DNA of 32,000 nucleotides from Microcystis aeruginosa NIES-2549 (GTDB lineage: Bacteria; Cyanobacteriota; Cyanobacteriia; Cyanobacteriales; Microcystaceae), in the NCBI RefSeq assembly GCF_000981785.2, contig NZ_CP011304.1:2160001-2192000 (forward strand), given 5' to 3'. This document shows positions 3,344-28,623 of the stretch, in pieces. Every line of letters begins with the position of its first letter. Positions within the stretch are counted from its first letter, which is position 1. The notes beneath the pieces were generated by a model, which had not been told where the DNA came from, ran no database searches, and saw nothing but the letters and a program-made list of their open reading frames with translations. Both the position numbers and the translations under genes were made by a program.

Positions 3344-3363
3344 GTACTTATAACTTTTCAAGA

Positions 3364-3398
3364 GAACGTAGGTTGGGTTGAAGCATGAAACCCAACGC
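3364..3398 (+). repeat. Dispersed 35-bp hairpin repeat (GTTGGGTT-N-AACCCAAC core); copy 1
   Basis: GAACGTAGGTTGGGTTGAAGCATGAAACCCAACGC is identical to the reverse complement of 14238-14272. Confidence 0.8.
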
Positions 3399-3480
3399 CT
3401 GCTCATGTTACGCTACCGCTAACCCATCCTACAAATAATTTTACCTCCCTACTTAAAAGACGATTTTTAGGCATTCTTGG

Positions 3481-4110
3481 TTAAGACATTAAAAATAAAC
3501 GATAAGATTTGCTGTCAATTAAGATATAAATTCCTAGAATAATATAGATAAAAGGACTAATTTTATGTCCGTAGTTTGTAAGCACTTTAGCTATCCTGGG
3601 ATGGGTAATCAAAAAATAGGCTAGGACGCACCAAATCCCCATCATGAGATAAAAAATTATCATGATAATTAAGACGTGCATCGGGGAATTATTGGCAAAA
3701 AGAGAGGTATAGATACCAATATTATCACCACCATTAGCCACTGTTACAGCCACAACTTGATAGGTTTCGGGAGTAATAATCGATCCAGGAGGGGAGGAAT
3801 GATTAAGATCGATCGCTACTGTTTGAATATTCTCATTGTCTGACGAAAAAAGCTGTTTAATCCCAATAATTAGCGGTATAAATCCTAATAGACCAATCCA
3901 TTCTTTAGAAACCAGTAACCCAAATAGTAAACCGAGGGAACTAGCTAGGAGAATGAGGGTAAAACCGAGGTATTGACCGATAATCAGATGTCGAGGTCGA
4001 AAATTAGCATTAAGTCGCGAGAAAAACAACATTAGCACCATCAGATCATCGAGATTTGTGGCTACAAAACTCGTCACGCTAGTAATTAAAAGGGCTACTA
4101 ACCAATTCAT
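3481..4110 (-). CDS. CadD-family cadmium-resistance-type transporter
   Basis: 209 aa, polytopic. The N-terminus ...FVATNLDDLMVLMLFF... and the GGDNIGIY motif are typical of the CadD family as I recall it. Confidence 0.7.
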   Translation of the reverse strand: MNWLVALLITSVTSFVATNLDDLMVLMLFFSRLNANFRPRHLIIGQYLGFTLILLASSLGLLFGLLVSKEWIGLLGFIPLIIGIKQLFSSDNENIQTVAIDLNHSSPPGSIITPETYQVVAVTVANGGDNIGIYTSLFANNSPMHVLIIMIIFYLMMGIWCVLAYFLITHPRIAKVLTNYGHKISPFIYIILGIYILIDSKSYRLFLMS

Positions 4111-4140
4111 AGATTGAAAAAAGGGATAATCCTTCCCATT

Positions 4141-4716
4141 CTAAATCTCGTAGTGCCAGATTTCCTCCTCTCGTAAAAGAAGACGATGGACGGGAAGACG
4201 TTCCACGGCCCCCTGTTGTTCAAGATGATTAAGTGCGCGGGTAATTGTGACTCTAGTAGTTCCTAATAAGTCAGCGATATCCTGATGAGTTAGACGCACA
4301 TCAATTAATTGTCCGTTACCGGTTTGTTTGCCGAATTGATTGCCTAACCATGACAGTAATTTCAGGACCATAACATCAGTACGTTTGTAGCTACGAATAA
4401 TACTTAGTTCTTGTGCTTGCTGAAGATGAGACAGCAGAATTTCTGCCATTTGATAACTCTCAACTGTGGAAAAGGAAACTGCTTGCACAGGACTAATGCA
4501 CTCAACTTGATAGGGATTGACTCTCTCTAGGGTTTTGCCAACAAAACTGCCGGGTCCCCACAATCCCAAGACGATGAGGGTTCCATCTTCTAACCAGGTG
4601 GAGGTTTTCACGACTCCACTCTCGATTTTCCAGAAATTAGGATTTCTGAGGGGCAAAATTGCCCGATTATCAAAGTGCCAGCGATGGGGGGTTGGTGGTT
4701 GATAGGTAAGCGTCAT
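4141..4716 (-). CDS. Crp/Fnr-family transcriptional regulator
   Basis: 191 aa with an N-terminal cNMP-like barrel and a C-terminal HTH, LTHQDIADLLGTTRVTITRALNHLEQQG. It lies 30 bp upstream of the CadD-like gene on the same strand. Confidence 0.85.
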   Translation of the reverse strand: MTLTYQPPTPHRWHFDNRAILPLRNPNFWKIESGVVKTSTWLEDGTLIVLGLWGPGSFVGKTLERVNPYQVECISPVQAVSFSTVESYQMAEILLSHLQQAQELSIIRSYKRTDVMVLKLLSWLGNQFGKQTGNGQLIDVRLTHQDIADLLGTTRVTITRALNHLEQQGAVERLPVHRLLLREEEIWHYEI

Positions 4717-4873
4717 GATTGATAATTAATTTTGATTAGGTACTTAGCTAGTAAAAAGCACAAGGCTGTCGGTAAAGGGGCTTTTTAGACAAGTTAAGGC
4801 TTTTTGGGAGATTTTGGGGTAAAAACGATAATTACCCCAAAAAAGACTGATTTTATGCCCTTGCAAGCCCTAT

Positions 4874-5572
4874 TTATTTCGGGGTGCTAGTCTTCTCCAG
4901 TTCCGTCGTCGCCGAGGAGATCAGTTCTTGCCAAGCTCGATCGCTTTCCTGTAGAGTCTGTTTAACTGCGTCGATGGTCTTTTCCACGCGAGTTTTCAGG
5001 AAAGGGGAAGCATTGTCTTTGAGTCGTTCGGTGTCGTCGGCTAAGATATCGATCGTCTCGGAGGTATTAACGAGGCTCTTTTCTAGGGTAATAAGGTTGT
5101 TTTGCAGGGTTTCACCGAGTTTAGCCCCAGAACTTGTCAACTTTTTCCCTAATTTGCTCACTTTTTCCCCTAGATCGTCAATATTATCTGCTAAGTCCTC
5201 TAGGTTGTCCTGTTGAGCTTCGATAATCTTCTTGTCGAGAGAAGGGGCGGCTAGTTGAGCATTTAGGTCATCGATAGCCGATTTTGTCGCTTGGATGGCT
5301 TTTTCATAGGCAATTTGGGCATCTTCGAGAATTTTTGACCTAGAAACCTCATTTTTTTTCTTAACTGGTTCCACCACAGTGCCACCGGTTGCCGTGGCAC
5401 GGTCGATGACAGCCAACTGTTCGGGAAGTAGCGGCAAGGCGATCGCATTTCCCCTTCCCCCGAGGAGCAAAGTGACAGTTAAGAGGAAAATCAGCAGCCG
5501 GAAAACTTGATTTTTGAGGTTTTTAAAACTCTTATTTCGGTTGATCATAATTTGATTTTCTCCTATATTCAA
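4874..5572 (-). CDS. Secreted or membrane-anchored coiled-coil protein of unknown function
   Basis: 232-aa ORF; the likely start is the second Met (5548). It has a hydrophobic signal/anchor (FRLLIFLLTVTLLLGG...AIA) followed by heptad-like, Lys/Glu/Asp-rich sequence. There is no Met or Cys after residue 9. Confidence 0.65.
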   Translation of the reverse strand: MNIGENQIMINRNKSFKNLKNQVFRLLIFLLTVTLLLGGRGNAIALPLLPEQLAVIDRATATGGTVVEPVKKKNEVSRSKILEDAQIAYEKAIQATKSAIDDLNAQLAAPSLDKKIIEAQQDNLEDLADNIDDLGEKVSKLGKKLTSSGAKLGETLQNNLITLEKSLVNTSETIDILADDTERLKDNASPFLKTRVEKTIDAVKQTLQESDRAWQELISSATTELEKTSTPK

Positions 5573-5863
5573 AAAATTGGTTATTCAATCTAAATATTAT
5601 CATATAAAATACTTGTGTGTTATCTATATACAGAAAATTTTATAAAAAATTTATTATATTTTTTAACTAATAAATTGCAGATAAAATATAAACTTTTTGA
5701 GCTAAAAACTATTATAGAAAAGCTTATACCCTTTTAATAGAAAAATAATTTTTATCGAAAAAATCTGGTCTAAAACCTCGCCTTAAGGCGAAAAGTTTTT
5801 GGGGCGGGGTATAAATTCCCTTTACAAAAATTGCCTCCTGCCGACCGCCTCCTGCCTCCGTTA

Positions 5864-6400
5864 TTAATGAGATGCTGAATTATCCGATGAGTCTATTTCT
5901 TGATTGATCCGAGATATTTTCTTCCGACCTTTAATATATTTGGCTAAAGGTTGTTTTTTCTTCAGTCGTTTAATGCCACTTAAAGTGGAGAGAGTGAATA
6001 AAGTACCCACGAGAACCATCTGCCATAAACCGCAGCCAGAAGCGGCCCCTAATCCTGCTGCTAACCAGATAGTCGCCGCCGAAGTCAAACCTTTTACTTG
6101 TATCTTATTTAGTTCCCGATGGGACTGTTGTAGGATGATTCCCGCCCCTAAAAAACCGACACCAGAAGCGACCCCTTGAATAGTGCGACTGAGGGCATTA
6201 GAAGACGCATAACCCACATCTCCTTCCGCTTGTAGGGGAATCATCACGAACATGGCAGCTCCGAGACTAACGATGATAAAAGTTCTCAATCCAGCCGGAC
6301 GACCGCCTCGCTGTCGGTTATAACCAATCAGACAGCCGACGGCCATAGCCATACTGAGCCGAAAAATAATCGTTTGCCAATCTTCCGAGTCAAAAAACAT
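5864..6400 (-). CDS. MgtC/SapB-family membrane protein
   Basis: 178 aa. RLSMAMAVGCLIGYNRQ...GLRTFIIVSLGAA is characteristic of the MgtC N-terminal domain. Confidence 0.75.
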   Translation of the reverse strand: MFFDSEDWQTIIFRLSMAMAVGCLIGYNRQRGGRPAGLRTFIIVSLGAAMFVMIPLQAEGDVGYASSNALSRTIQGVASGVGFLGAGIILQQSHRELNKIQVKGLTSAATIWLAAGLGAASGCGLWQMVLVGTLFTLSTLSGIKRLKKKQPLAKYIKGRKKISRINQEIDSSDNSASH

Positions 6401-6476
6401 TGCTTAACCCATCAAATGAGATAAAAACTTCGCCTAACTAATCAAGGCCTTTTCCAGATCCCGCTTTAAATCGTTT

Positions 6477-6611
6477 CTATTCTCGATCCCGATCGATAAT
6501 CCTAGTAAAGCTGGTGTTATAGGTGGAAGTGAGATCAATGGGAACCGTTACCGCCCCATGGCTAGAGTCTGGTTCTTGCCCCCCATGAATTGCCCTCGTT
6601 TCAAATTCCAT
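6477..6611 (-). pseudogene. N-terminal relic (44 codons) of a Cys/Met-metabolism PLP enzyme (cystathionine gamma-synthase / O-acetylhomoserine sulfhydrylase type)
   Basis: My own translation is MEFETRAIHGGQEPDSSHGAVTVPIDLTSTYNTSFTRIIDRDRE*. The TRAIHGGQEPD...GAV..PI..TSTY block matches the conserved N-terminus of this family. Only ~76 bp remain before the next gene, so the rest is deleted. Confidence 0.6.
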
Positions 6612-6626
6612 CAATTTATTGTCCTA

Positions 6627-7574
6627 TTAGTCGATATCTTCGAGGTCTTTAAACAGGGCCGTGCTGAGGTAACGTTCCCCGAAACTAGGCTGAATCATGA
6701 CGATTAATTTATCTTCGTTTTCGGGTCTTTTGCCCACCTGAATCGCCGCCCATAAAGCAGCCCCGGCCGAAATGCCCGATAGTAGTCCCTCCTGACGAGC
6801 TAACCGTCGCGCGTAGGCGAAAGCCTCTGTATCATCGACGATAATCACCTCATCGATTAATTCCGGTCGGAAAATGGCTGGGATAAAACCGGCGCCGATG
6901 CCTTGGATTTTGTGCGGCCCGGGTGGTCCTCCCGATAAGACGGGACTATTAGAGGGTTCAACTGCGATCGCTTGAAATTGGGGACGACGGGGTTTAATGG
7001 TTTCGGCAATACCGGTAATGGTTCCCCCGGTTCCCACGCCACCGATAACGATATCTACCAGGCCGTCGGTATCGGTCCAGATTTCTTCGGCGGTGGTTTC
7101 TCGGTGAATTTTCGGGTTAGCCGGGTTGCGGAACTGTTGCAAACTATAGGCGTTGGGGATGTTTTCGACTATTTCCTCGGCTCTGGCGATCGCTCCTTTC
7201 ATGCCTTGGCTACCCGGGGTTAATTCTAATTGCGCTCCGTAGGCTTTTAACATCGCCCGTCGTTCTAAACTCATGGTTTCGGGCATAGTCAGGATTAAGC
7301 GATAGCCTTTGGCAGCGGCTACCATGGCCAGGGCGATGCCGGTATTGCCGGAAGTGGGTTCCACCAGAATTGTTTTATCGGGGTGAATTAGTCCGGCGGC
7401 TTCAGCGTCCTCCACCATACTGACCCCGATGCGATCCTTAACCGAGGCGGCGGGGTTCATACTTTCTAGTTTGACGACGATGCGGGCTTTTACTCCCTCT
7501 GCTACTGGGATTCGATTCAGTTGGACTAGGGGAGTCCGTCCTACCAATTGGGTGATGTCTCTTGCGATCGGCAT
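6627..7574 (-). CDS. cysK: Cysteine synthase A (O-acetylserine sulfhydrylase)
   Basis: 315 aa with [13 protein letters not shown], the PLP-lysine context [15 protein letters not shown], and [10 protein letters not shown]. Confidence 0.95.
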
Positions 7575-7664
7575 AATCCCACTTGCTTTATACTTGTTGG
7601 CTATTTTTGATTATATATGTATTTAAGATGTTTTACAATACTTTTTAGATTGGAGTACAGTGCG

Positions 7665-7694
7665 TCGGCGGGGATTATCCCCGTCGATTTTTTT
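7665..7694 (+). terminator. Orphan intrinsic-terminator-like hairpin in the cysK / cpcB intergenic region
   Basis: 10-bp GC-rich stem (7665-7674 / 7678-7687, one G-U pair), 3-nt loop, then T7 (7688-7694). No plus-strand gene lies upstream. Confidence 0.45.
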
Positions 7695-8200
7695 GCCTTG
7701 ATAGTTTCTTTTTGGTATATCAAAGCACAATCGATAAAATCGTCTTGGGAAATTTTTCTCAATTTAGTTAATTATTATTAGTATATAAAAGCACATTTGT
7801 TTAAATAACTTAAAGGAATTATTAGAGAGATGAAAAGAGTGATACTTTTTCTTAGTATAGGGTTACACATTTGGAAAAGTTTTCTGAGATTTATCCTAAA
7901 AAATTATTTTTTTGCTGTTTTTTTAGGAAACAATTTTTAATAAATAAAGGTGAAAATATCGTCTATAAAATAATTTATGGCAAAAACGAGGTGTGTCTAG
8001 GAGCGTCAATAAACGCTAAATTCAATTTAAAAGAATTGTTCCTCGATATACAAAAAATCTGGCCAAGGGAGAGTAAAACTTTTTTCAAGGACGATAGTAT
8101 AGTCCCAAGAAAAAAACTCCTAGATACTTTATCGGAAAAATAAAGAAAAGCCAGAAAATTTACCTCGATATTTTGCCGAAACCAATCATCATTATAGGAG

Positions 8201-8731
8201 ATGAAAACTATGGTGTTAGATGCCTTTGCCAAAGTCGTTTCCCAGGCCGATACCCGCGGGGAATACCTGAGCGAGAATCAAGTCAATGCCCTAATTGCCT
8301 TCGTCAAAGATGGTAATAAACGCGTGGATGTGGTCAATCGTCTTTCCAGTAATTCTTCTGCGATCGTTACCGATGCCGCGCGTAGTTTGTTTTCAGAACA
8401 GCCCGTTTTAGTTGCCCCCGGTGGCAACGCCTATACAAACCGTCGTGCCGCCGCCTGCTTGCGGGATTTGGAAATTATCCTGCGCTACGTTACCTATGCC
8501 ACCTTCACCGGCGATGCCAGCATCCTCGATGATCGCGCCTTGAATGGTCTCCGGGAAACCTACGTCGCCCTAGGAGTTCCGGGTGCTTCTGTTGCGGCCG
8601 GAATTCTCAAGCTCAAAGACGCTTCCCTTGCCCTAGCGGCCGATCCCAACGGGATCACTCGCGGGGATTGCAGTTCTTTACTAGCAGAAGTCGCTTCCTA
8701 CTTCGATCGAGCGGCGGCGGCAGTTTCCTGA
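8201..8731 (+). CDS. cpcB: Phycocyanin beta-subunit paralog, sulfur-depleted (cpcB3-like)
   Basis: ...[15 protein letters not shown]...[25 protein letters not shown]...[31 protein letters not shown] at 8192-8196 favours a start at ATG 8210 or GTG 8213. Its only Cys are the two bilin sites, and there is no internal Met. Confidence 0.93.
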
Positions 8732-8786
8732 TGCTGTGACTTTCTTCTCTCAATCCGATTAAACTTTTGTAGGAGCAATTCCATCG

Positions 8787-9278
8787 ATGACCAAGACACC
8801 TTTAACCGAAGCGGTGGCTACTGCCGATTCCCAAGGCCGTTTTCTCAGCAGTGCAGAATTACAAGTAGCCTTCGGTCGTTTCCGTCAGGCCGCCATCACC
8901 CTAGAAGCGGTAAAAATCCTCGCCCAAAAAGCCCCCAGTTTAGCCCAAGAAGCAGCCAACGCTGTCTATCAAAAATTTCCCTACACCACCCAACTCCAGG
9001 GGCCGAACTATGCCTACGATGAGCGGGGGAAATCCAAGTGCGTTCGCGATATCGGCTACTATATCCGGATTATCACCTATGCCCTCGTGGTAGGCGGTAC
9101 AGGCCCGATCGATGAATATCTAGTCGCCGGTTTGAGTGAAATTAATAGTGCCTTTGAACTATCTCCTAGTTGGTATATCGAAGCCTTAAAATACATCAAA
9201 ACCAATCACGGATTAAGTGGGGATGCTGCTGTAGAAGCTAATTCCTACATCGATTATGTGATCAACGCCCTTAGCTAA
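8787..9278 (+). CDS. cpcA: Phycocyanin alpha-subunit paralog, sulfur-depleted (cpcA3-like)
   Basis: [22 protein letters not shown]...[30 protein letters not shown]...[21 protein letters not shown]...NALS. It has a single Cys (the alpha-84 bilin site) and only the initiator Met. Confidence 0.95.
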
Positions 9279-9324
9279 TTTACGTCAACTTCACGTCAAC
9301 ACAAGCTCAAATCTCCTAAATTCA

Positions 9325-9351
9325 CCTCGGGATGAGCGCCGAGGTTTTTTT
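9325..9351 (+). terminator. Rho-independent terminator of cpcBA
   Basis: CCTCGG-gatgagcg-CCGAGG followed by T7. Confidence 0.75.
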
Positions 9352-9391
9352 GCGTCCGTCTAACTTGGTCGTCGTCGGGAACCTACCCTAA

Positions 9392-9419
9392 CAAAAAAAC
9401 CATCTTGGGCAAGATGGTT
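9392..9419 (-). terminator. Rho-independent terminator of the rhodanese gene
   Basis: Perfect 9-bp stem AACCATCTT-gggc-AAGATGGTT. An A-run at 9392-9399 gives a U-tract on the minus strand. Confidence 0.75.
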
Positions 9420-9452
9420 AAACACAACGAGTATAAACCGACAAACTTGATT

Positions 9453-10451
9453 TTAGACCGCTTTTTCTGGCCCGGTAGCGACGGGCAGATCTGTGGTACT
9501 GTACTCTGTCCAAGAACCCTCATAAATTCGCACCTTGGGATAACCGAGCAGATGTTTGAGGACAATATACTGTAAAGTCGCTTCCCGTCCGGTACTGCAA
9601 CTGACGATAATATTATCCGAGGGCTTGATGTTGCTTTGGGCAAGAATCTTCCTTATTTCGTCTAAAGATTTCAATTTATGAGGATTTTTCAGGGATTCAT
9701 CGGGATTATTCGCTTCCGTAAAAGTCGGCCAGGGTATATTTTTCGCCCCCGGAATATGACCATTTCTCAGCCAGATATCCTGTTTCCCCTGAAAAAGTTC
9801 TTCCGGTCTAGGATCGATAAAAACCACATCTGGTTTGCCGATCAATTTCTCTACTTCTGCTAAATTTACCCGAATCGAGGGATTATCACGGACAGTAAAG
9901 CTCCCGGGTTGATATTTAGGGAATTCTTTAGTTACCTTTTGTTCAGAGCCCTTATAACCCTTAAAACCGCCATCTAAGACCGCCACATCTCGGAAACCCG
10001 AGCGCTCTAGTAAATAGGCCACCATGGTTGCCCCCAAGACATCGCGACCATCGGAATATACTACCACTCGATCGCCATTAGTGATTCCCGCGGCGGCAAA
10101 GAGACTGCCAATTTTATCCTCTTGCCAATATTGAACCGGCAAAAATCCGTTTGGACCACGAAAATTATTGTCGGCTATATTCACCGCTTTCGGTAAATGA
10201 CCGGTGATATATTCTAAAGGATTAATCCGCACATCGAGAATTTTTAACTTCGGATCGTTGAGATTTTGTGCTACCCACCCCGGCGATACAAAGTCTATCT
10301 TAGTCTCAGATTTAGACGTGGCCATCAGGGGCGATGACGGGGCTAAGGTAAAGGTTAAAATGCAGAGGAGAACTAAAGTGAAAAAAGCAAGGGGACGGCT
10401 GTGAAACCGTCCCAGGGATAGACCCTTCCCTTGACGCAGTTTTGGTTTCAT
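9453..10451 (-). CDS. Exported tandem-rhodanese sulfurtransferase (thiosulfate/3-mercaptopyruvate type; RhdA-like)
   Basis: 332 aa with a signal peptide (...FFTLVLLCILTFTLAPSSPLMA), two rhodanese domains and the active-site loop VSCSTGREAT. Confidence 0.85.
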   Translation of the reverse strand: MKPKLRQGKGLSLGRFHSRPLAFFTLVLLCILTFTLAPSSPLMATSKSETKIDFVSPGWVAQNLNDPKLKILDVRINPLEYITGHLPKAVNIADNNFRGPNGFLPVQYWQEDKIGSLFAAAGITNGDRVVVYSDGRDVLGATMVAYLLERSGFRDVAVLDGGFKGYKGSEQKVTKEFPKYQPGSFTVRDNPSIRVNLAEVEKLIGKPDVVFIDPRPEELFQGKQDIWLRNGHIPGAKNIPWPTFTEANNPDESLKNPHKLKSLDEIRKILAQSNIKPSDNIIVSCSTGREATLQYIVLKHLLGYPKVRIYEGSWTEYSTTDLPVATGPEKAV

Positions 10452-10561
10452 GATTCAGTGTCAGCGACGAGTATCAAATGATAATCACTATAGGGCTTTG
10501 ATTAGCTTTCTCCAAAAATTTAAGTATAGCGTGATATTTTTTTTGGCAGCAAGTCGGTCAA

Positions 10562-11230
10562 CTAATTATTAATTTTCTCTTGGGTGTTGATCGCCTTGGG
10601 TGTCTCTAATAACTGTTGCCACCAGATATGAAATAGGAAAGACCAAGCGATCGCTAAAAGCCAAGCGGCAAGGATATCACTAGGAAAGTGAACACCTAAA
10701 TAAAGACGAGTCCAGGCAATAACTAAGACGAAGGGAATCCCCAGTAAAACTACCCCGAAAAACCAGCGCGTTCTCCAAGATAGGATCAGTAAAGAAACCA
10801 CTAACAGGGAACTAAATAAAGCATGACCGCTAGGGAAGGCAAAATCATCGGGTAACGGATAAAATAACTGCCAAAATTGCGGGCGGTTTCGATGAAAAAA
10901 AATCTTGAGATTATAACTAATTGCCCAACCTCCCGCCATAGTTACAAGAAGATAAGCGAACCCATACCAGTATTTTTTTAGGGCAAAAATCAGCAGTAAA
11001 ATTGTTAGTATCGGGGCTACTCCCCAATAAGTACCCAATCCCGTTAGTTTTATGGCCAAAAAATTTAGGTTTAAATTAGTAGTTTGATGAATAGATAGCA
11101 GCAGGAATTTTTCCCAAGCAAATCCTTGGGGATGCTGGTCAATAGCGATCGCTAAATCCGTAAAACTTAGCGATGTTAACAAGATGGCTAAGAAAAATAA
11201 GCTATTGTTTAAGTAGGTTTTGGCAATCAC
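10562..11230 (-). CDS. PAP2-family phosphatase (phosphatidic acid / undecaprenyl-PP phosphatase type)
   Basis: Motifs KIFFHRNRP, PSGHA and TRLYLGVHFPSD. The track ORF extends to 11353. However, a GTG at 11230 overlaps the upstream gene's TGA (GTGA), which is the more likely coupled start. Confidence 0.8.
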   Translation of the reverse strand: MIAKTYLNNSLFFLAILLTSLSFTDLAIAIDQHPQGFAWEKFLLLSIHQTTNLNLNFLAIKLTGLGTYWGVAPILTILLLIFALKKYWYGFAYLLVTMAGGWAISYNLKIFFHRNRPQFWQLFYPLPDDFAFPSGHALFSSLLVVSLLILSWRTRWFFGVVLLGIPFVLVIAWTRLYLGVHFPSDILAAWLLAIAWSFLFHIWWQQLLETPKAINTQEKINN

Positions 11231-11607
11231 GGGGAAAAAGTGGCGATCGAGGATAACAGGGGCATTTCTAAAACCTGAAAATGCAGCAAAGCTAGGATTA
11301 CTAAAGTATAAACTGTCGAGGAAAGTAATCCATTTCTTAATTCTTTTTGCCAATTGCGTTCTTCTTTCTCTCCACCGATTAATTCTTTCGTTCCGAACTG
11401 CATCAGCAGAATTCCCACAACATTAGATAACCAATAACCAACCATGGCCGCCGGCAGAAAAAAATCGGCGTGTAAGCAAGCAATTAAACGACCGAAACCG
11501 TAGGCGATCGGCAGATTAAAAATTAGATCGTTCCACCAACACAGGGGCGATAATAAGTAACCAATCAATACCAAGGTTCCGTTTTTTATTTTGTCCAGTA
11601 GATACAT
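11227..11607 (-). CDS. Small conserved membrane protein of unknown function
   Basis: 126 aa with 3-4 hydrophobic segments, SPLCWWNDLIFNLPIAYGF. Its stop codon overlaps the GTG start of the PAP2 gene. Confidence 0.6.
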   Translation of the reverse strand: MYLLDKIKNGTLVLIGYLLSPLCWWNDLIFNLPIAYGFGRLIACLHADFFLPAAMVGYWLSNVVGILLMQFGTKELIGGEKEERNWQKELRNGLLSSTVYTLVILALLHFQVLEMPLLSSIATFSP

Positions 11608-11642
11608 CTTTTTTTTATTTACTAACTATCAGCTTTGTTTTT

Positions 11643-11787
11643 GGCTCTTCTAGGTTCTGTGTGATACGTTTAACTTACAGAGGATCGATCAATCTTTGTG
11701 TCCTTTGTGTCTTTGTGGTTCCTTCCACTCGCTCGCTAGGAAGAATGTATCTTAGAATACATTTTACCCACCAAACCTAAGAGAGCC
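11643..11787 (-). mobile_element. MITE copy 1 (145 bp)
   Basis: Near-identical to 20783-20927 and 28480-28623 in the opposite orientation. Flanked by the 7-bp direct repeat TGTTTTT. Confidence 0.85.
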
Positions 11788-11847
11788 TGTTTTTTTGGCC
11801 ATCAGCAATCAACTATCTCTGCTATCTAGCTGACGGCTCACGACTAA

Positions 11848-12930
11848 TTAACGCTGAATTTGGTCAAAAATCGCCCCATCAGCGAAGAATTTTTTCTGGA
11901 TCGCATCCCAGCTACCAACCGCAGTATAGGGGAAAAGATTCGACACTTTTGGATATTGTTTACTAAACTCTTTAGCCACATTAGCATTAACGGGACGGAA
12001 ACCCACCTTGGCGAATTCCCGCTGCGCTTCCGGAGTAAAGAGAAATTGGGCAAAAGCTGTCGCTACTTCCCGGGTTTTGCGTTTATCAACTATTTTATCC
12101 ACTACGGCCACAGGCGGATCGATCGAAACATTGACCGGAGGAATAGTATAGGAAAACCCGGTTTCTCCTTTTTGACGGGCCAGAATCACCTCGTTTTCGT
12201 AGTTAAGCAGCACATCCCCCTGATCTTGTTTAAAGAAGACATCGCTGGCTTCCCGGGCATCTTTGGGTAGTACAGGCACGTTTTTATAGACATTGCGGAC
12301 GAAATTGGTCGCTTGTTGTTCGTTGCCTCCATTCCGAGTTACCGATCCCCACAGGGCCAGAAAATTCCACCGTGCCACCCCAGAGGTTTTCGGGTTGGCA
12401 GTAATGACTTTAATCCCCGATTTGGCTAGATCTGGCCAGTTGCGGATTCCTTTGGGATTGCCCTGACGAGTAACTAAAGCTACCACGGAACGAGTGGCGA
12501 TGGCATTATTGGGGAGTTCTTTCTGCCAACCGGGGTTAACTAAACCCGCTTTTTGCAAGCGTTCCACATCGGAACCGATGGCCAAATTTACCACATCTGC
12601 ATCTAATCCGTCGATAACAGCGCGGGTTTGGGAACCAGAGCCGCCATAACTCTGTTTAATCACCACATCCTGTTTTTTCTCTCTTTTCCATTTGTTGACG
12701 AATAGAGGAATGATTTTTGAGTAGGCCGATTGAGTCACCGCGTAGGAAACCAGGGTGATTTCCACGGTTTGTTGTTTAGCTTGCTCTTTATCCGCAGCTG
12801 CCAGCAGATTACTCGATGCTGATAGGGGACTAGAAGCTAGTCCGATTCCCGTTGTGACGACGGCAGCCGTAGCTAGAGAAATAAAAGGTAAGAGGGTTTT
12901 CGGTTTTGGGGATCTAGGATCAGGGATCAC
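11848..12930 (-). CDS. sbpA: Sulfate/thiosulfate ABC-transporter periplasmic binding protein
   Basis: 360 codons with SYGGSGSQTRAVIDGLDADVV and ITANPKTSGVARWNFLALWG. GTG start with AAAGGAG 11 nt upstream. There is no ATG codon or Cys codon anywhere in the frame. Confidence 0.9.
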   Translation of the reverse strand: MIPDPRSPKPKTLLPFISLATAAVVTTGIGLASSPLSASSNLLAAADKEQAKQQTVEITLVSYAVTQSAYSKIIPLFVNKWKREKKQDVVIKQSYGGSGSQTRAVIDGLDADVVNLAIGSDVERLQKAGLVNPGWQKELPNNAIATRSVVALVTRQGNPKGIRNWPDLAKSGIKVITANPKTSGVARWNFLALWGSVTRNGGNEQQATNFVRNVYKNVPVLPKDAREASDVFFKQDQGDVLLNYENEVILARQKGETGFSYTIPPVNVSIDPPVAVVDKIVDKRKTREVATAFAQFLFTPEAQREFAKVGFRPVNANVAKEFSKQYPKVSNLFPYTAVGSWDAIQKKFFADGAIFDQIQR

Positions 12931-12981: not shown

Positions 12982-12996
12982 TAGAATCGTATTCTA
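12982..12996. promoter_or_regulatory. Perfect 6-3-6 palindrome upstream of sbpA (candidate operator)
   Basis: TAGAAT-CGT-ATTCTA, 52-66 bp upstream of the sbpA start. Confidence 0.2.
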
Positions 12997-13053
12997 TACG
13001 AAATAAAAAACAATTACAATACATTGAAGAAAAAATTATACTGTTTGGGTTAG

Positions 13054-13290: not shown

Positions 13291-13357
13291 CGACTTCAAT
13301 CAATAAGCAGGGTGCGTCCCCAAAATCTATTGGTGGAGCAGTAGGACTTGCATTATC

Positions 13358-13555
13358 GCACTGAAACAGTCCAGTAGGGTGTGTTAGCGTTAGCGTAACG
13401 CACGAATTTTGAACATTAGATAAGGTGCGTTACATTTCATTAACGCACCCTACCAGAGCGCACTGAAACAGTCCAGTAGGGTGTGTTAGCGTCAGCGTAA
13501 CGCACGAATTTTGAACATTAGATAAGGTGCGTTACATTTCATTAACGCACCCTAC
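13358..13555 (+). repeat. Tandem duplication (2 x ~96 bp, 102-bp period) of a hairpin-rich REP/MITE-like element
   Basis: Units 13358-13453 and 13460-13555 differ by one base. Each unit contains GCGTTA-gcg-TAACGC and the perfect 9-bp stem GGTGCGTTA-catttcat-TAACGCACC. A partial third head (CTGAAACAGTCCA) lies at ~13590. Confidence 0.85.
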
Positions 13556-13706
13556 AAGATCGGCGATCGCACTAATACACCAAATTAGCTGAAACAGTCC
13601 ACTACCATATCGGCGATCACACTAGTGATCGCGTGTGTCCAAATACCCTTGTGGGGGCAAAATCTACCCTAAATACCGAAAAAGATGCTTTACATCTCAC
13701 CAAAAC

Positions 13707-20617: not shown

Positions 20618-20782
20618 GTTTGTTTAGTGGTTCTAGGATAAAGATTTTTGCTTAACTCATTTAGCTGTTTTTGTCAAGGATTTTACGTTATTTTTTTGAG
20701 ATTAATCCCCGCAGCCAATTAAATCTTAACTAAATGTAACGTAATTCTCATAATTCTGACAAGAATGGTGACGAGAGATTTT

Positions 20783-20927
20783 GGCTCTCTTGGGTTTGGT
20801 GGGTAAAATGTATTCTAAGATACATTCTTCCTAGCGGGGGGGTGGAACGAACCACAAAGACACAAAGGACACCAAGATTGATCGCTTCTGTGTAAGTTAA
20901 ACTTATCACACAGAACCGAGAAGAGCC
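20783..20927 (+). mobile_element. MITE copy 3 (145 bp)
   Basis: Runs GGCTCTCTTGGGTTTGGTGGGTAAAATGTATTCTAAGATACATT...CACACAGAACCGAGAAGAGCC. Flanked by the 7-bp direct repeat AGATTTT. Confidence 0.85.
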
Positions 20928-21214: not shown

Positions 21215-22147
21215 GTGAAGTTAACGCCACTTGTACCACCGATTAAGTGTCAAGGAATTAAAACTAAATTGGTGAAAGATATTAAAAATATTGTGTCTGA
21301 TCTGAGCTTTGGGCGTTGGATAGAACCCTTTTCTGGATCGGGAGTGGTGGCTTTTAATATTAATCCCCAAACGGCTTTACTTGCGGACACAAATACTCAT
21401 ATTATCCAGTTTTATAATAATCTAAAAAATCAAGTTATTACCAGTAAAACTGTTAAGCTTTTTTTGCAAGAAAATGGTCAAGTTCTTAAGGAGCAGGGAG
21501 AAAGTTATTATTATCAAGTACGAGAAAGATTTAATCAAGCTCCTAATTCTCTAGATTTTTTATTTCTCAATCGCTCCTGTTTTAATGGCGTGATGAGATT
21601 CAATCGTAAGGGAGAGTTTAACGTCCCTTACTGTCATAAATCAGAACGATTTTCTCAAGCATATATTACCAAAATAGTCAATCAAGTTATTGCCCTAGAA
21701 AATATTCTTATTAAAACTGATTATAATTTTCAAGTTGCTGACTTTCGAGAGACTTTATCTGATTGGCAAAAAACAGACTTGATCTATCTCGATCCTCCTT
21801 ATTTAGGGAGACACACCGATTATTTTAACTCTTGGTCTCAAGAGGATGAAGATTGTTTGGTTACTATTTTAAAGGATATTTCTTGTCGGTTTATTTTGTC
21901 CACTTGGCACAGTAATCAGTTTAGAAGCAATCCTTTAATTAAAAAAAATTGGAGTGCTGATAAGTTTTATATCTATACTAAACAGCATTTTTATCATGTT
22001 GGTTCCACAGAAAAATTGCGTCATCCGATCACCGAAGCGATCATCACTAACTTTAACATTCCCTTGTTGCCAGAGCGAGGAACTGATTTGCAACAACTGT
22101 CATTATTGCCATCGACAGCAGAAAATGAGGGAGTGAGAACAGTCTAG
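21215..22147 (+). CDS. Dam-class (D12, alpha-type) N6-adenine DNA methyltransferase
   Basis: 310 aa with a GTG start. AdoMet motif I is EPFSGSGVV and catalytic motif IV is LIYLDPPY. The motif order I then IV is as in Dam. NRSCFNGVMRFN is also typical. Confidence 0.85.
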   Translation: MKLTPLVPPIKCQGIKTKLVKDIKNIVSDLSFGRWIEPFSGSGVVAFNINPQTALLADTNTHIIQFYNNLKNQVITSKTVKLFLQENGQVLKEQGESYYYQVRERFNQAPNSLDFLFLNRSCFNGVMRFNRKGEFNVPYCHKSERFSQAYITKIVNQVIALENILIKTDYNFQVADFRETLSDWQKTDLIYLDPPYLGRHTDYFNSWSQEDEDCLVTILKDISCRFILSTWHSNQFRSNPLIKKNWSADKFYIYTKQHFYHVGSTEKLRHPITEAIITNFNIPLLPERGTDLQQLSLLPSTAENEGVRTV

Positions 22148-24880: not shown

Positions 24881-25381
24881 ATGAGAGCAAGATCCGCAAA
24901 AATCAGAGGATGGCTAGTTACCCTCGTTTCTACTAGCTTAGTCATGGGATTAGGTACTTCTCCCCTAGTCAAGGCACAGCAGAATATTGTACCGGGTAAT
25001 GCCATGACAGTGCGATCGGATATTCAGGAGGCAAACTCAAAAACGGGCGTAATTACCGCTCGTGGTAACGTACAAGTGTTCTATCCTGCCCGCAAAATGC
25101 AGGCCACTTCCGCCCAAGCTCAGTATTTTAGCCGCGAACGTCGTTTAGTGATGACGGGTAACGTTTACGTTTTGCAGGAAGGCAACAGTATCCGCGCTGA
25201 AACGATGACTTATCTAGTCGATGAGGGCAGATTTATCGCTACTCCCCAAACCAGTCAGCAGGTGGAGTCAATTTATTTAGTCAAAGATAACGAAACCTCT
25301 CCCCCACCGGCTGCTTCCCCTGTACCCGCACCCATACCTTCCCCTTCCCTCCCCGCTGCCCCAATTATTAACCCGCAGTGA
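24881..25381 (+). CDS. lptA: LptA/OstA-family periplasmic LPS-transport protein
   Basis: Signal peptide ending VKA/QQ, OstA-like repeats (ITARGNVQVFY..., LVMTGNVYVLQEGNSIRAETMTY), and a Pro-rich tail. Confidence 0.7.
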   Translation: MRARSAKIRGWLVTLVSTSLVMGLGTSPLVKAQQNIVPGNAMTVRSDIQEANSKTGVITARGNVQVFYPARKMQATSAQAQYFSRERRLVMTGNVYVLQEGNSIRAETMTYLVDEGRFIATPQTSQQVESIYLVKDNETSPPPAASPVPAPIPSPSLPAAPIINPQ

Positions 25382-25383
25382 TT

Positions 25384-25591
25384 AGGAGTCAGGAATCAGG
25401 AGTCAGGAGACAGGAGACGGGAGACAAAAGGCAAAAGGCAAAAGGCAAAAGGCAAAAGGCAGTATTCTTCCCACACCCCACACCCGTTCGGCTGAGCTCA
25501 CGGCCGAAGCCCACACCCTACACCCCACACCCCCACACCCCACACCCCACTTCCCCAACACCCCACACCCCACACCCAACACCCCAACACC
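25384..25591 (+). repeat. Composite heptamer (STRR-type) array filling the lptA-lptB spacer
   Basis: Six AGGAGTC-type units (25384-25425), five AAAAGGC units (25426-25460), CACACCC units (25472-25485), a small hairpin (25487-25508), then ~80 nt of CACACCC/CACCCCA-type units to ~25591. Confidence 0.9.
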
Positions 25592-25599
25592 GGATAAAG

Positions 25600-26328
25600 A
25601 TGACTTTAGTATTAGAAAATATCCATAAATCCTACGGTAAAAGGCTCGTGGTTAACCGGGTGAGTATTACGGTTGCCCCGGGGGAAATTGTCGGGTTATT
25701 AGGACCAAATGGTGCGGGAAAAACCACAACTTTTTATATCGCCACGGGATTAATTAAACCGAATCAAGGGCGCGTTTGGCTCGATCAAAAAGAAATTACC
25801 AAATTACCCCTTAATCAGAGGGCGCGTCTGGGTATTGGCTATCTGACGCAGCAGGCCAGTATTTTTCGTTATTTAACTGTATCAGAAAATATTCAGTTAG
25901 CCCTAGAACAGTCGGGAGTTCCCTTTTCCCAACGGGCAAATCGTCTCTATGATTTATTAAAAGAATTTCGCCTCGATAAGATTGTTCGCACTAAAGGAGC
26001 CTACGTTTCCGGAGGAGAAAGAAGAAGGACGGAATTAGCTCGCGCTTTAGCGGTGGGAGTCAACGGACCAAGATTTTTATTATTAGATGAACCTTTCGCC
26101 GGGGTGGATCCGATCGCCGTGTCCGAGATTCAAACGATGATTGCTGGTTTAAGGGATCGTCAGATGGGAATTTTAATTACCGATCACAATGTGCGAGAAA
26201 CTTTGGCTATCACTAATCGGGCTTATATTATGCGCGAAGGGCAGATTTTAGCGGCGGGAAGTGGCGAAGAACTTTATAATAATCCTCTGGTGCGTCAGTA
26301 TTATTTGGGTGATAATTTTTTAAGATAA
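25600..26328 (+). CDS. lptB: LPS export ABC transporter ATP-binding protein
   Basis: MTLVLENIHKSYGKR..., Walker A GPNGAGKTT, signature SGGERRR, Walker B LLLDEP. It is 242 aa from ATG 25600. The track start at 25378 reads through the repeat array. Confidence 0.92.
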   Translation: MTLVLENIHKSYGKRLVVNRVSITVAPGEIVGLLGPNGAGKTTTFYIATGLIKPNQGRVWLDQKEITKLPLNQRARLGIGYLTQQASIFRYLTVSENIQLALEQSGVPFSQRANRLYDLLKEFRLDKIVRTKGAYVSGGERRRTELARALAVGVNGPRFLLLDEPFAGVDPIAVSEIQTMIAGLRDRQMGILITDHNVRETLAITNRAYIMREGQILAAGSGEELYNNPLVRQYYLGDNFLR

Positions 26329-26360
26329 TTGTTATTAATAAAAAAATCGATAATTATATC

Positions 26361-27530
26361 ATGAAAGTTGGCAATTGGCAAGGAAATTTAAGTAGAATAC
26401 CCGGATTTAGCATCTTAGACCGCTATATTTTTGTCGAGTTATTATTGCCCTTTTTATTTGGTATGGGTTTATTCACTTCTTTGGGAGTGGCGATCGGCAC
26501 TTTATTTGATTTAGTGCGACGGATTACTGAATCGGGTTTACCTTTTACTTTGGCCCTAAAAATTCTCTTATTAAAAATGCCAGAGTTTATCGTTTTAGCC
26601 TTTCCCATGTCAATACTTTTAGCGGCTTTAATGGCCTACAGTCGTTTAGCCAGTGATAGCGAATTAATTGCTTTTAAAAGTATTGGAATTAGTGTTTATC
26701 GCCTAATAATTCCGGCCATTGTGCTAAGTTTAATAGTGACGGGATTAACCTACGTTTTTAACGATTATGTGGCTCCGGCTGCCAGCTATGAAGCTAATGC
26801 TACCATGACCAAAGCCCTGCGACCCAATCGTAAGTCTTTTATTGAAGATAATATTATTTATCCTGAATACGGCAAAGTGCGGCCAGCGAATGGAGGGGAA
26901 CCCCAAACGGTATTAAGAAGGTTATTTTATGCCGAAAGATTTAACGGTCAAGAAATGTTAGGTTTAACCATTCTCGATCGCACCCAACCGGAAGTTAATC
27001 AAATTATTACCTCAGAATCAGCTTCTTGGAATATTGAAAAAAATATCTGGGATTTTTATAACGGTACAATTTATCTAATTGATCCTAAGGGTTCCTATCG
27101 TAATATTGTCCGCTTTCAACATCAACAATTAGCCCTACCGCGTACCCCTTTAGATTTAGCTTTTCGGGCGCGAGATGGTTCAGAAATGACCCTAAGACAA
27201 GCGCGGGAATACCTAGAAATACTGCAATTAAGCGGCAATCCAACCAAAATTAGAAAACTACAGGTTCAAATCGAGCAGAAAATATCTTTACCCTTTGTTT
27301 GTTTAGTTTTTGGGATGATTGGGGCAGCCTTGGGATTGCGTCCCCAAAATTCTAATAAAGCCACCAGTTTCGGTATTTGTATTGTCCTAATTTTCTCCTA
27401 TTATCTCCTATCTTTTGTCACCAGTTCCTTAGGCATTGGCGGAGTTTTAACCCCCTTGATGGCCGCTTGGTTGCCCAACATTTTAGGATTAACTGCCGGG
27501 GGAATTTTGTTACTTCAATCGGCTAAATAA
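26361..27530 (+). CDS. LptF/LptG-family (YjgP/YjgQ) LPS export permease
   Basis: 389 aa. ILDRYIFVELLLPFLFG is the typical N-terminus, and the protein has six TM segments with a large periplasmic loop. Confidence 0.85.
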   Translation: MKVGNWQGNLSRIPGFSILDRYIFVELLLPFLFGMGLFTSLGVAIGTLFDLVRRITESGLPFTLALKILLLKMPEFIVLAFPMSILLAALMAYSRLASDSELIAFKSIGISVYRLIIPAIVLSLIVTGLTYVFNDYVAPAASYEANATMTKALRPNRKSFIEDNIIYPEYGKVRPANGGEPQTVLRRLFYAERFNGQEMLGLTILDRTQPEVNQIITSESASWNIEKNIWDFYNGTIYLIDPKGSYRNIVRFQHQQLALPRTPLDLAFRARDGSEMTLRQAREYLEILQLSGNPTKIRKLQVQIEQKISLPFVCLVFGMIGAALGLRPQNSNKATSFGICIVLIFSYYLLSFVTSSLGIGGVLTPLMAAWLPNILGLTAGGILLLQSAK

Positions 27531-28441: not shown

Positions 28442-28479
28442 CAGTGATCAGTACCCAGTAATCAGTAAACTAAAAACTC
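28442..28479 (+). repeat. Heptamer array, left half (CAGTGAT CAGTACC CAGTAAT CAGTAAA CTAAAAA CTC)
   Basis: Read directly. It is in phase with the array at 28631-28690 once the MITE and one TSD copy are removed. Confidence 0.8.
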
Positions 28480-28623
28480 GGCTCTCCCAGGTTTGGTGGG
28501 TAAAATGTATTCTAAGATACAGTCTTGGGGCAGTGAGTGGAACGAACCACTCCAGACACAAAGGACACAAAGATCGATCAATCCTCTGTAAGTTAAACTT
28601 ATCACACAGAACCTAGAAGAGCC
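28480..28623 (+). mobile_element. MITE copy 4 (144 bp), inserted into a heptamer array
   Basis: Same termini and core as copy 3. Flanked by the 7-bp direct repeat AAAACTC (28473-28479 and 28624-28630). Confidence 0.85.

Follow-up and report, generated by a model that had tools for sequence, protein, structure and literature searches.

We analyzed a 32,000-nucleotide stretch of the Microcystis aeruginosa NIES-2549 genome (contig NZ_CP011304.1, positions 2,160,001 to 2,192,000; here called the window), and we consider it fairly probable that a block of 11 genes at about 3.4 to 13.0 kb of this window (3481-12930) is a sulfur-limitation island of Microcystis and its relatives, shaped by classic elemental sparing. 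Judged from the encoded proteins, the island appears to join four functions: sulfur capture (the sulfate-binding protein SbpA and a putatively exported rhodanese), cysteine synthesis (the O-acetylserine sulfhydrylase CysK), sulfur sparing (an extra phycocyanin pair encoded by cpcB and cpcA), and a set of accessory envelope proteins, to which we would assign a secreted four-helix-bundle protein, a DUF7980-PAP2 pair, and proteins of the MgtC and CadD families. The genes cysK and cpcBA are divergently oriented, while cpcA and the rhodanese gene are convergent. A preliminary description of this DNA had proposed a sulfur-related neighborhood of about 8 kb (4874-12930). Conserved linkage in Microcystis and its relatives bears out the sulfur-related neighborhood; its extent had been drawn too narrowly, since the block reaches left to about position 3481 and takes in a Crp-family regulator and CadD.

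Sulfur amino acids in the island proteins

Internal methionines (the initiator left out) and cysteines were counted in the translation of every open reading frame (ORF) in the window, and all the counts given in the preliminary description were reproduced. SbpA (11848-12930, minus strand), a product of 360 codons with a GTG start and no in-frame ATG, lacks internal Met and Cys altogether. ORF 4874-5572 (minus strand), which encodes the four-helix-bundle protein, has no Cys and a single internal Met, at residue 9; its homologues, 217 to 224 amino acids (aa) long, begin at this methionine, and the real product is therefore 4874-5548, of 224 aa, with neither an internal Met nor a Cys. Of the two internal Met and two Cys of the rhodanese (9453-10451, minus strand), M43 and C30 belong to a signal-like N terminus that ends at SSPLMA, before TSK, so that the mature part retains one Met and the Cys of the CSTGR motif. 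The PAP2 protein, counted from the GTG at 11230, has one Met and no Cys in 222 aa; this start is backed by homologues of 222 aa annotated at NCBI and by its overlap, as GTGA, with the TGA that ends the upstream gene. In the extra phycocyanin pair, the beta subunit (from M4) and the alpha subunit lack internal Met and contain two and one Cys, respectively, at bilin sites only. The proteins that had been named as a contrast do have ordinary Met content, with 8 internal Met (plus the initiator) in CysK, 14 in FtsH, 5 in MgtC, and 7 in CadD; CysK has no Cys and CadD one, and DUF7980 contains three Met and two Cys.

The preliminary description had treated export as the trait that the sulfur-poor products share. 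Several of them are exported, but Met and Cys are purged from the cytoplasmic phycocyanin pair too and kept in MgtC, CadD, and DUF7980, which are membrane proteins, and an outer-membrane protein unrelated to the island is just as sulfur poor. Export is not the variable that separates the sulfur-poor from the ordinary proteins of the island.

The phycocyanin pair was compared with solved C-phycocyanins residue by residue. The beta-subunit gene cpcB (8210-8731, plus strand; NCBIfam TIGR01339, score 285.5 against a cutoff of 279.3) lies in an ORF that opens at 8201, with M4 (MVLDAF) at 8210 as the likely start, and is followed by the alpha-subunit gene cpcA (8787-9278, plus strand; TIGR01338, 285.9 against 269.45). 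Relative to PDB 1CPC_B, the canonical Met and non-bilin Cys residues of the beta subunit are replaced by V, A, L, A, L, and L (NKRM to NKRV, RRMAAC to RRAAAC, RDME to RDLE, DDRC to DDRA, QKMK to LKLK, and SLMA to SLLA). Relative to 1GH0_A, Met residues of the alpha subunit are replaced by Leu or Ile and Cys by Ala at the canonical positions (TTQM to TTQL, LRMVTYC to IRIITYA, and GPMD to GPID). The three cysteines that remain align with the chromophore-binding cysteines of the solved proteins. By family threshold and bilin cysteines both subunits are C-phycocyanins, and by their lack of internal Met and non-chromophore Cys they show PC3-like depletion. PC3, encoded by the cpc3 operon of Calothrix PCC 7601/Fremyella diplosiphon, is likewise an extra alpha/beta pair without Met and non-chromophore Cys; under sulfate scarcity it makes the most abundant protein cheaper in sulfur, and by analogy the window pair may serve the same role. 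The Calothrix cpc3 operon also carries linker genes. The window pair differs from PC3 in consisting of cpcB and cpcA only, in being divergent from cysK within a sulfur-acquisition cluster, and in being accessory, with cpcBA missing from 5 of 13 Microcystis loci (the window and 12 others). Low sulfate induces the Met/Cys-depleted phycocyanin in Calothrix/Fremyella, according to the account given in PMC4357790 (citing Mazel and Marliere 1989 and Gutu et al. 2011). The solved phycocyanin PDB 6JPR has the same Met/Cys-free substitutions in chains A and B as the window pair, and a sulfur-depleted phycocyanin may thus already have been crystallized without being described as one.

The PAP2 lipid-phosphate phosphatase (10562-11230, minus strand; Pfam PF01569, 73.8 against a cutoff of 27.2) carries in its translation the catalytic motifs of its class, namely, KX6RP (KIFFHRNRP), PSGH, and (S/T)RX5HX3D (TRLYLGVHFPSD). 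It has the lowest Met+Cys content among 118 homologues, for which the median is five sulfur residues, and looks like a sulfur-depleted paralogue. A sulfur link of the whole subfamily was considered and rejected, as homologues at 52% identity or less occur in unrelated, non-sulfur contexts. Its partner is a small membrane protein of family DUF7980 (11227-11607, minus strand), identified through the assignment of PF25937 to the Pannus orthologue. The two genes are always paired, and the pair is kept in Microcystis, in Pannus, and on a Pseudanabaena plasmid; from the GTGA start/stop overlap, PAP2 is predicted to be translationally coupled to the upstream DUF7980 gene. This conserved pairing and the rank among homologues uphold the proposal that PAP2 is a consistent, sulfur-depleted member of the neighborhood. 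NCBIfam matches of PAP2 to PgpB and to undecaprenyl-diphosphatases are weak. More speculatively, the DUF7980-PAP2 pair might act in remodeling of membrane or envelope lipids, one example being phosphatidylglycerophosphate phosphatase activity during the withdrawal of sulfolipid.

The product of 4874-5548 (minus strand), delimited from its translation, from homologues that start at M9, and from an AlphaFold2 model, is predicted to be secreted and acidic. The mature form of about 187 aa (about 20 kDa; isoelectric point, 4.8) lacks Met, Cys, and His and has a single Trp, a single Tyr, and a single Phe, a composition that fits an abundant, inexpensive, non-enzymatic protein. It had been labeled a coiled coil; AlphaFold2 (alignment of seven sequences; mean predicted local distance difference test score [pLDDT], 76) instead predicts an up-and-down four-helix bundle, with a signal or transmembrane helix at residues 5-30 (cleavage between AIA and LP), a disordered stretch of about 40 residues (30-68), and four long helices within residues 72-221, where pLDDT is mostly above 90. 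A Foldseek search of this model against the PDB gave no significant match (best E = 0.04), and the hits were generic helical bundles only (designed proteins, talin, and 4HB domains of chemoreceptors), so that no function can be derived from them. Pfam matches to Apolipoprotein and CorA were far below threshold and were set aside. The family was compared among orthologues only, without an outgroup. Mature orthologues at 45-57% identity are sulfur free in five lineages, represented by Pannus, Chroococcopsis, a metagenome-assembled genome (MAG), and two metagenome contigs; the single Cys of the MAG orthologue lies in the signal peptide. The gene is found downstream of cysK or mgtC in every lineage in which it occurs. 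Linkage and sulfur-free orthologues together agree with the earlier view of this uncharacterized secreted protein as a consistent, sulfur-depleted member of the sulfur neighborhood.

The rhodanese is a two-domain, RhdA-like protein (Pfam PF00581, two stretches) whose CSTGR loop, in alignments with solved sulfurtransferases, coincides with the catalytic one, which identifies it by tandem domains and active site. By inspection its N terminus shows a basic region, a hydrophobic core, and an LMA-T site, and is a putative export signal. Its PDB homologues have about four to seven Met/Cys residues in the aligned region, and close homologues are encoded in plasmid-borne sulfur clusters of Pseudanabaena and Nostoc edaphicum.

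SbpA (NCBIfam TIGR00971, 279.8 against a cutoff of 155.5) and the Salmonella protein Sbp (PDB 1SBP; E = 1.2e-74) are members of one family, and the latter also has no Met and no Cys over 306 aligned residues. A sulfur-free SbpA is a recurring, already known trait. Unlike the enterobacterial protein, SbpA is an orphan second copy without the linkage to permease genes that marks the Sbp/CysP class; no cysTWA genes were found within the window. M. aeruginosa PCC 7806 is reported to have, besides sbp-cysTWA, a second sbp gene of 1,083 nucleotides (nt) that is unlinked to permease genes, is 59% identical to the first, and is differentially expressed in a strain with raised sbp-cysTWA expression (PMC11448079). 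We take the window sbpA to be this second sbp, from its equal length and its lack of linkage to cysTWA. The other genes of the island were not listed in the supplements of PMC11448079.

The background for these counts consisted of 64 non-island ORF clusters (20,153 aa) from the window and 12 Microcystis loci, a local sample rather than a genome-wide one, with 1.29% internal Met and 1.03% Cys (Met+Cys, 2.3%). At 2.3%, binomial probabilities were 2e-4 for SbpA, 5e-3 for the four-helix-bundle protein, 0.035 for PAP2, 0.036 for the rhodanese, 0.11 for CpcA, and 0.24 for CpcB; the chance of order e^-11 given earlier for SbpA, which assumed 3% Met+Cys, was overstated. Jointly, the six sulfur-poor proteins, a set picked post hoc, lay below the background (Mann-Whitney, p = 6e-5), as did all 11 island genes (p = 0.03). 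The prediction that the sulfur-poor proteins would fall in the extreme tail of the Met+Cys distribution held in part: in the local 64-protein sample the six island proteins are in the low tail, but a non-island LptD-like protein is more extreme. Sulfur depletion is beyond chance, though less so than had been claimed. The comparison within families is more telling than that with the background because it controls for fold and location. Sulfur is below both the local and the family background, with the caveats that the former is small and that an outer-membrane control protein is just as poor.

Conservation of the island and its putative regulator

Gene conservation was followed by a pattern scan for the four-helix-bundle gene, with one genome per species. 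The only genomes with the gene were those of 12 Microcystis genomospecies, Pannus brasiliensis, Chroococcopsis gigantea, and one MAG. Every Microcystis locus had an intact cysK-mgtC-four-helix-bundle-crp-cadD core, most had sbpA-DUF7980-PAP2-rhodanese, and cpcBA was present in 8 of 13 (the window and 12 others). Gene order, which had been suggested as a check on the neighborhood, is thus conserved across Microcystis, and a related order occurs in Pannus. The flanks of the island are strain specific in Microcystis, which indicates that the block has been held together while its surroundings turn over.

In Pannus, the order is sbpA-DUF7980-PAP2-cpcA/cpcB-cysK-cystathionine lyase-four-helix-bundle; genes for CadD, a LysR regulator, TauE, and CysA are close by, and a relaxase gene and a transposase fragment lie at the edge of the copy. 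Pannus also encodes a secreted protein of 305 aa with one Met and no Cys. Chroococcopsis and the MAG have cysK-four-helix-bundle with cadD on the opposite strand. On a plasmid of Nostoc edaphicum, the rhodanese gene lies among genes for arylsulfatase, TauD, YeeE, and MetY/MetX. Plasmid ABRG53c of Pseudanabaena sp. ABRG5-3 (NZ_AP017563.1) carries, within about 9 kb, the Crp regulator (39% identical), cysK, the exported rhodanese (56%), MgtC, DUF7980, and PAP2, in the arrangement Rrf2-cysE-cysK / Crp / cysA plus rhodanese-MgtC-DUF7980-TauE-PAP2. Several neighboring proteins are also sulfur poor. In contrast to the window, this plasmid-borne cluster lacks the four-helix-bundle gene, the phycocyanin pair, and sbpA and adds cysE, Rrf2, cysA, and TauE. 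Beside it (locus L019, 240-5192) are genes for an NADPH-dependent oxidoreductase of 276 aa, an "iron uptake porin" of 614 aa, and a methyltransferase-domain protein of 289 aa, each with one Met and no Cys, which suggests that sulfur depletion on this plasmid reaches cytoplasmic enzymes.

Three membrane or metabolic genes of ordinary sulfur content follow the same pattern of linkage. CysK (6627-7574, minus strand) was assigned by NCBIfam TIGR01139 (456.8 against a cutoff of 350.95), the MgtC-family membrane protein (5864-6400, minus strand) by Pfam PF02308 (E = 1e-34), and the CadD-family membrane protein (3481-4110, minus strand) by PF03596 (E = 2e-31). The mgtC gene lies between cysK and the four-helix-bundle gene in Microcystis and in loci L002 and L003, and it adjoins the rhodanese gene on the Pseudanabaena plasmid. 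The cadD gene is beside the cluster in 12 of 12 Microcystis loci, on the opposite strand in Pannus as in Chroococcopsis and the MAG, and also occurs in a Gloeothece sulfur cluster. From these placements, MgtC, DUF7980-PAP2, and CadD recur as members of sulfur clusters in cyanobacteria, and several such clusters are on plasmids.

The island also encodes a transcription factor of the Crp/NtcA family (4141-4716, minus strand; Pfam HTH_Crp_2, E = 8e-14; Crp, E = 7.5e-10), with a weak cNMP_binding match and, overall, the Crp-type effector domain and C-terminal helix-turn-helix of the family. Its best NCBIfam match, PtrA, scores 84 bits, far under the cutoff of 300. Across cyanobacteria the factor has orthologues at 53-64% identity, one of them with the annotation "Regulatory protein CysR." Their neighbors include Rrf2 and an sbpA-like gene in Chroococcopsis, cysE, Rrf2, and cysA in Gloeothece, and cysT, cysW, and sbpA in Fischerella, and the relative on the Pseudanabaena plasmid is likewise among sulfur genes; the linkage to sulfate-transport and cysteine genes that characterizes CysR is therefore present. 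By this gene context and the one database name, the protein is CysR-like and is the probable regulator of the island. The cysR gene of Synechococcus elongatus is chromosomal. The S. elongatus plasmid pANL was not among the results of a tblastn search with the regulator against the plasmid collection.

The recognition helix of the regulator (TTRVTITR) is nearly identical to that of NtcA (STRVTVTR), so that its predicted targets are GTA-N8-TAC-like. Three NtcA-type boxes (GTG-N8-TAC; extended, WTGTG-N6-TATACWA) lie in the divergent cysK-cpcB spacer at 7715-7728, 7781-7794, and 7855-7868 (minus strand), and a fourth, with one mismatch, is at 8038-8051 (plus strand). Exact GTG-N6-TATAC occurs three times in the window, each time in this spacer (0.32 expected). 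In Pannus, the cpcB-cysK spacer has an equal number of boxes although it is otherwise poorly conserved, and among Microcystis loci the boxes are present with cpcBA and absent or fewer where cpcBA is missing.

A consensus scan found a sigma-70 promoter-like site (TTGTAA-17-TATAAT; a pattern match at 10 of 12 positions) 36 bp upstream of cysK (7610-7638, minus strand). A similar one, TTGTAA-17-TAGAAT, lies upstream of sbpA (12991-13019, minus strand), where the Pannus counterpart is TTGCAT-17-TATAAT by alignment; both look like strong sigma-70 promoters. A terminator scan gave convergent terminator-like hairpins at 9324-9345 (plus strand), after cpcA, and at 9398-9419 (minus strand), after the rhodanese gene. 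Between the box array and the cysK promoter is a GC-rich hairpin of 11 pairs (7664-7688) followed by a T-run on the plus strand, which would terminate transcription running antisense towards cpcB. No riboswitch or small RNA was found by an Rfam scan of the whole window at gathering thresholds. A perfect NtcA-type palindrome, GTATTCTAAGATAC, upstream of the DUF7980 gene (11747) was rejected as an operator because it is part of a dispersed repeat of about 100 bp. This repeat, which resembles MITEs (miniature inverted-repeat transposable elements), has GTATTCTAAGATAC at its center and flanks such as GGTTTGGTGGGTAAAAT and CCACAAAGACACAAAGGACAC; its three copies in the window are at 11700-11810 (between sbpA and DUF7980), 20760-20880, and 28460-28580.

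Several further features concern the edges of the island and its variants. At the left edge, a repeat of about 94 bp (3363-3456) recurs at several unrelated positions in loci L005, L008, and L011; it is probably a miniature mobile element that marks the boundary of the island. Positions 1-2665 are AT rich (34% GC), hold no ORF of at least 70 aa, and match nothing in the 12 other Microcystis loci; the DNA to the left of the island is thus strain specific. On the right, conservation with other Microcystis strains stops about 260 to 430 bp upstream of sbpA; beyond that point, at about 430 to 630 bp, is a tandem duplication with a 102-bp unit at 98% identity (13357-13559). In the Microcystis-type loci L006 (18182-19480), L007 (3379-4518 and 11556-13642), and L003 (2122-3546), the island is extended by more sulfur genes. 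These encode an O-acetylhomoserine sulfhydrylase-like protein (432 aa, one Met, two Cys); a cystathionine lyase, between cysK and mgtC; CysA and TauE; and, downstream of the four-helix-bundle gene, a FAD-dependent protein.

A proposed sulfur-sparing response, its alternatives, and known systems

If the block is a sulfur-limitation island, sulfate shortage would lead the CysR-like regulator to switch it on, and SbpA, the rhodanese, the bundle protein, the replacement phycocyanin, and possibly PAP2 would then be made in bulk. Selection would have stripped these bulk products of all Met and Cys beyond what catalysis or chromophore binding requires, the sulfur of exported products not being recoverable by the cell, so that the response itself would spare the limiting element. 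The low-copy regulator, MgtC, CadD, and DUF7980, as well as CysK, would have kept ordinary sulfur. The cell seems to encode PAP2, phycocyanin, and SbpA elsewhere too, which would make the island versions sulfur-poor extra copies. No sulfate-starvation transcriptome of Microcystis was found in a literature search. Sulfur starvation induces sulfate-transport proteins (PMC8049743), and, in the account of PMC4357790 (citing Baudouin-Cornu et al. 2001), sulfur-assimilation proteins are sulfur poor as a general rule.

A number of observations count against such a response. Only about half of the island proteins are sulfur poor, and the background of 64 proteins is small and takes in some sulfur-metabolism genes. 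The sulfate-binding family is sulfur poor overall, with a mean of 1.35% Met+Cys in the aligned domain and 14 of 114 full-length representatives at zero. Outside the cluster, the LptD-like DUF3769 protein (29054-31447, plus strand) contains a single Met and lacks Cys over its 797 aa (P = 1.5e-7), and the 614-aa porin of the Pseudanabaena plasmid is equally poor; envelope location alone can yield a low-sulfur signature. The sbpA-rhodanese and cpcBA modules are missing in some strains, which makes the island modular rather than a fixed unit. The box array is confined to the cysK-cpcB spacer, where NtcA would be a binder as valid as the island regulator. A search of all intergenic regions of the island for a shared perfect palindromic operator (half-sites of 5 to 6 nt, spacer of 0 to 12) found none in at least three regions and none common to the promoters of sbpA, the rhodanese gene, the four-helix-bundle gene, and cysK.

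The compositional points among these raise a more general explanation, which we consider unlikely, that low Met and Cys reflect an economy of the envelope, with selection on exported proteins for cheap or non-oxidizable residues, and that the co-location with sulfur genes is incidental. The LptD-like protein, the plasmid porin, the secreted 305-aa protein of Pannus, and the poverty of the sulfate-binding family as a whole would all follow from it, but the cytoplasmic phycocyanin, purged at exactly the canonical Met/Cys positions, would not. PAP2, moreover, is the minimum of 118 homologues that share its membrane topology, and linkage of the four-helix-bundle gene to cysK holds in each lineage in which that gene was found. 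Other putatively exported proteins of the Microcystis sample have 1.3-3.1% Met+Cys, so that export alone does not account for the pattern, even if it is able to produce it.

It also seems quite unlikely that the block is a mosaic of horizontally assembled, mobile sulfur cassettes (cysK-mgtC-four-helix-bundle-crp-cadD, sbpA-DUF7980-PAP2-rhodanese, and cpcBA), each with its own signal, and hence a neighborhood rather than a regulon. The modules are present or absent independently among Microcystis strains, yet every one of them concerns sulfur acquisition or sparing, and the same combination recurs in Pannus at lower identity. Mobility is suggested by the relaxase and transposase fragment beside the Pannus copy, by the related clusters on Pseudanabaena and Nostoc plasmids, and by strain-specific flanks with MITE-like repeats. 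The failure to find a common operator in the island intergenic regions would fit a mosaic as well; set against it are the CysR-like regulator embedded in the block and the precedent of S. elongatus, where sulfur genes scattered over chromosome and plasmid are nonetheless linked to CysR as one set (PMC11420160). Chance or a compositional artifact, in which short Ala/Leu/Lys/Glu-rich helical proteins or miscalled ORFs happen to lack Met and Cys, is extremely improbable and appears largely excluded by the orthologue and family comparisons, given that all genes have strong family matches or conserved orthologues, that zero-sulfur status persists in orthologues at about 50% identity, and that ranks within families are extreme, even though single P values for the rhodanese, PAP2, CpcA, and CpcB are only 0.04-0.24 and the six-protein set was chosen after the fact.

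A sulfur-limitation island of this kind would have a counterpart in S. elongatus PCC 7942, in which sulfur genes are arranged as a chromosomal cysA-sbpA-cysTW-cysR-rhdA group and as srp genes on plasmid pANL (PMC11420160, PMC8049743), with CysR controlling the sulfate-transport and plasmid sulfur genes (PMC11420160). Both systems include a sulfate-binding protein, a rhodanese (putatively exported in the island), genes for cysteine synthesis, and a regulator of the Crp family, the likeness to CysR and RhdA being one of gene context and one database name. Part of the PCC 7942 set lies on a plasmid, as it does in the relatives of the island from Pseudanabaena, Nostoc, and Pannus. The island differs in lacking the cysTWA permease genes and an encapsulin (srpI) and in adding the sulfur-minimal phycocyanin, the four-helix-bundle protein, DUF7980-PAP2, MgtC, and CadD.

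For the four-helix-bundle protein, the Chlamydomonas extracellular polypeptides (ECPs) ECP76 and ECP88, which are nearly without sulfur amino acids, offer an analogy as secreted sulfur-stress proteins of unassigned function. They are induced by sulfur starvation (PMC3235179). The ECPs come from a eukaryote and have no sequence or fold relation to the bundle protein.

Sulfur-sparing composition as a principle is established. What appears to be new is the compact Microcystaceae arrangement that joins known elements, together with a bundle family always linked to cysK, a sulfur-depleted DUF7980-PAP2 pair, and the box array between cysK and cpcBA. A bolder and somewhat unlikely extension is that the bundle protein is an envelope or extracellular ECP counterpart for sulfur starvation, that DUF7980-PAP2 is a sulfur-depleted isoform of a housekeeping lipid-phosphate phosphatase, and that the island is a portable "low-sulfur proteome kit." If this were true, the island would swap several abundant proteins for sulfur-free versions, the spare phycocyanin and spare SbpA included, and PAP2 could possibly be a phosphatidylglycerophosphate phosphatase that aids replacement of sulfoquinovosyldiacylglycerol by phosphatidylglycerol under sulfur stress.

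Sulfur sparing is a textbook case of nutrient limitation shaping protein composition and has been documented in few organisms. The island would unite the capture of sulfate and the making of cysteine with a low-sulfur phycocyanin, a likely regulator, and three uncharacterized families, and it makes the four-helix-bundle protein and DUF7980-PAP2 candidates for missing parts of the response of cyanobacteria to sulfur stress. Among the cyanobacteria that form blooms in fresh water, Microcystis is the main one, and the island genes are possible markers of sulfate limitation for metatranscriptomes of blooms.

Other genes of the window

The LptD-like protein (DUF3769 and LptD_N domains) is more sulfur poor than any protein of the sulfur cluster, and its gene lies near lptA- and lptB-like genes and permease-like genes of the lptF/G type (24881-27530). 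The ORF of the LptB-like ATPase runs into about 220 bp of heptanucleotide repeats at 25378-25600 (AGGAGTC, CAAAAGG, and CCCACAC), which give it a low-complexity extension rich in His, Pro, and Thr; its real start is probably the ATG at 25600 (MTLVLENIHK). A DNA adenine methyltransferase-like ORF with a DPPY motif (21215-22147, plus strand) lies in a pocket of 33% GC, a low value that suggests recent horizontal acquisition.

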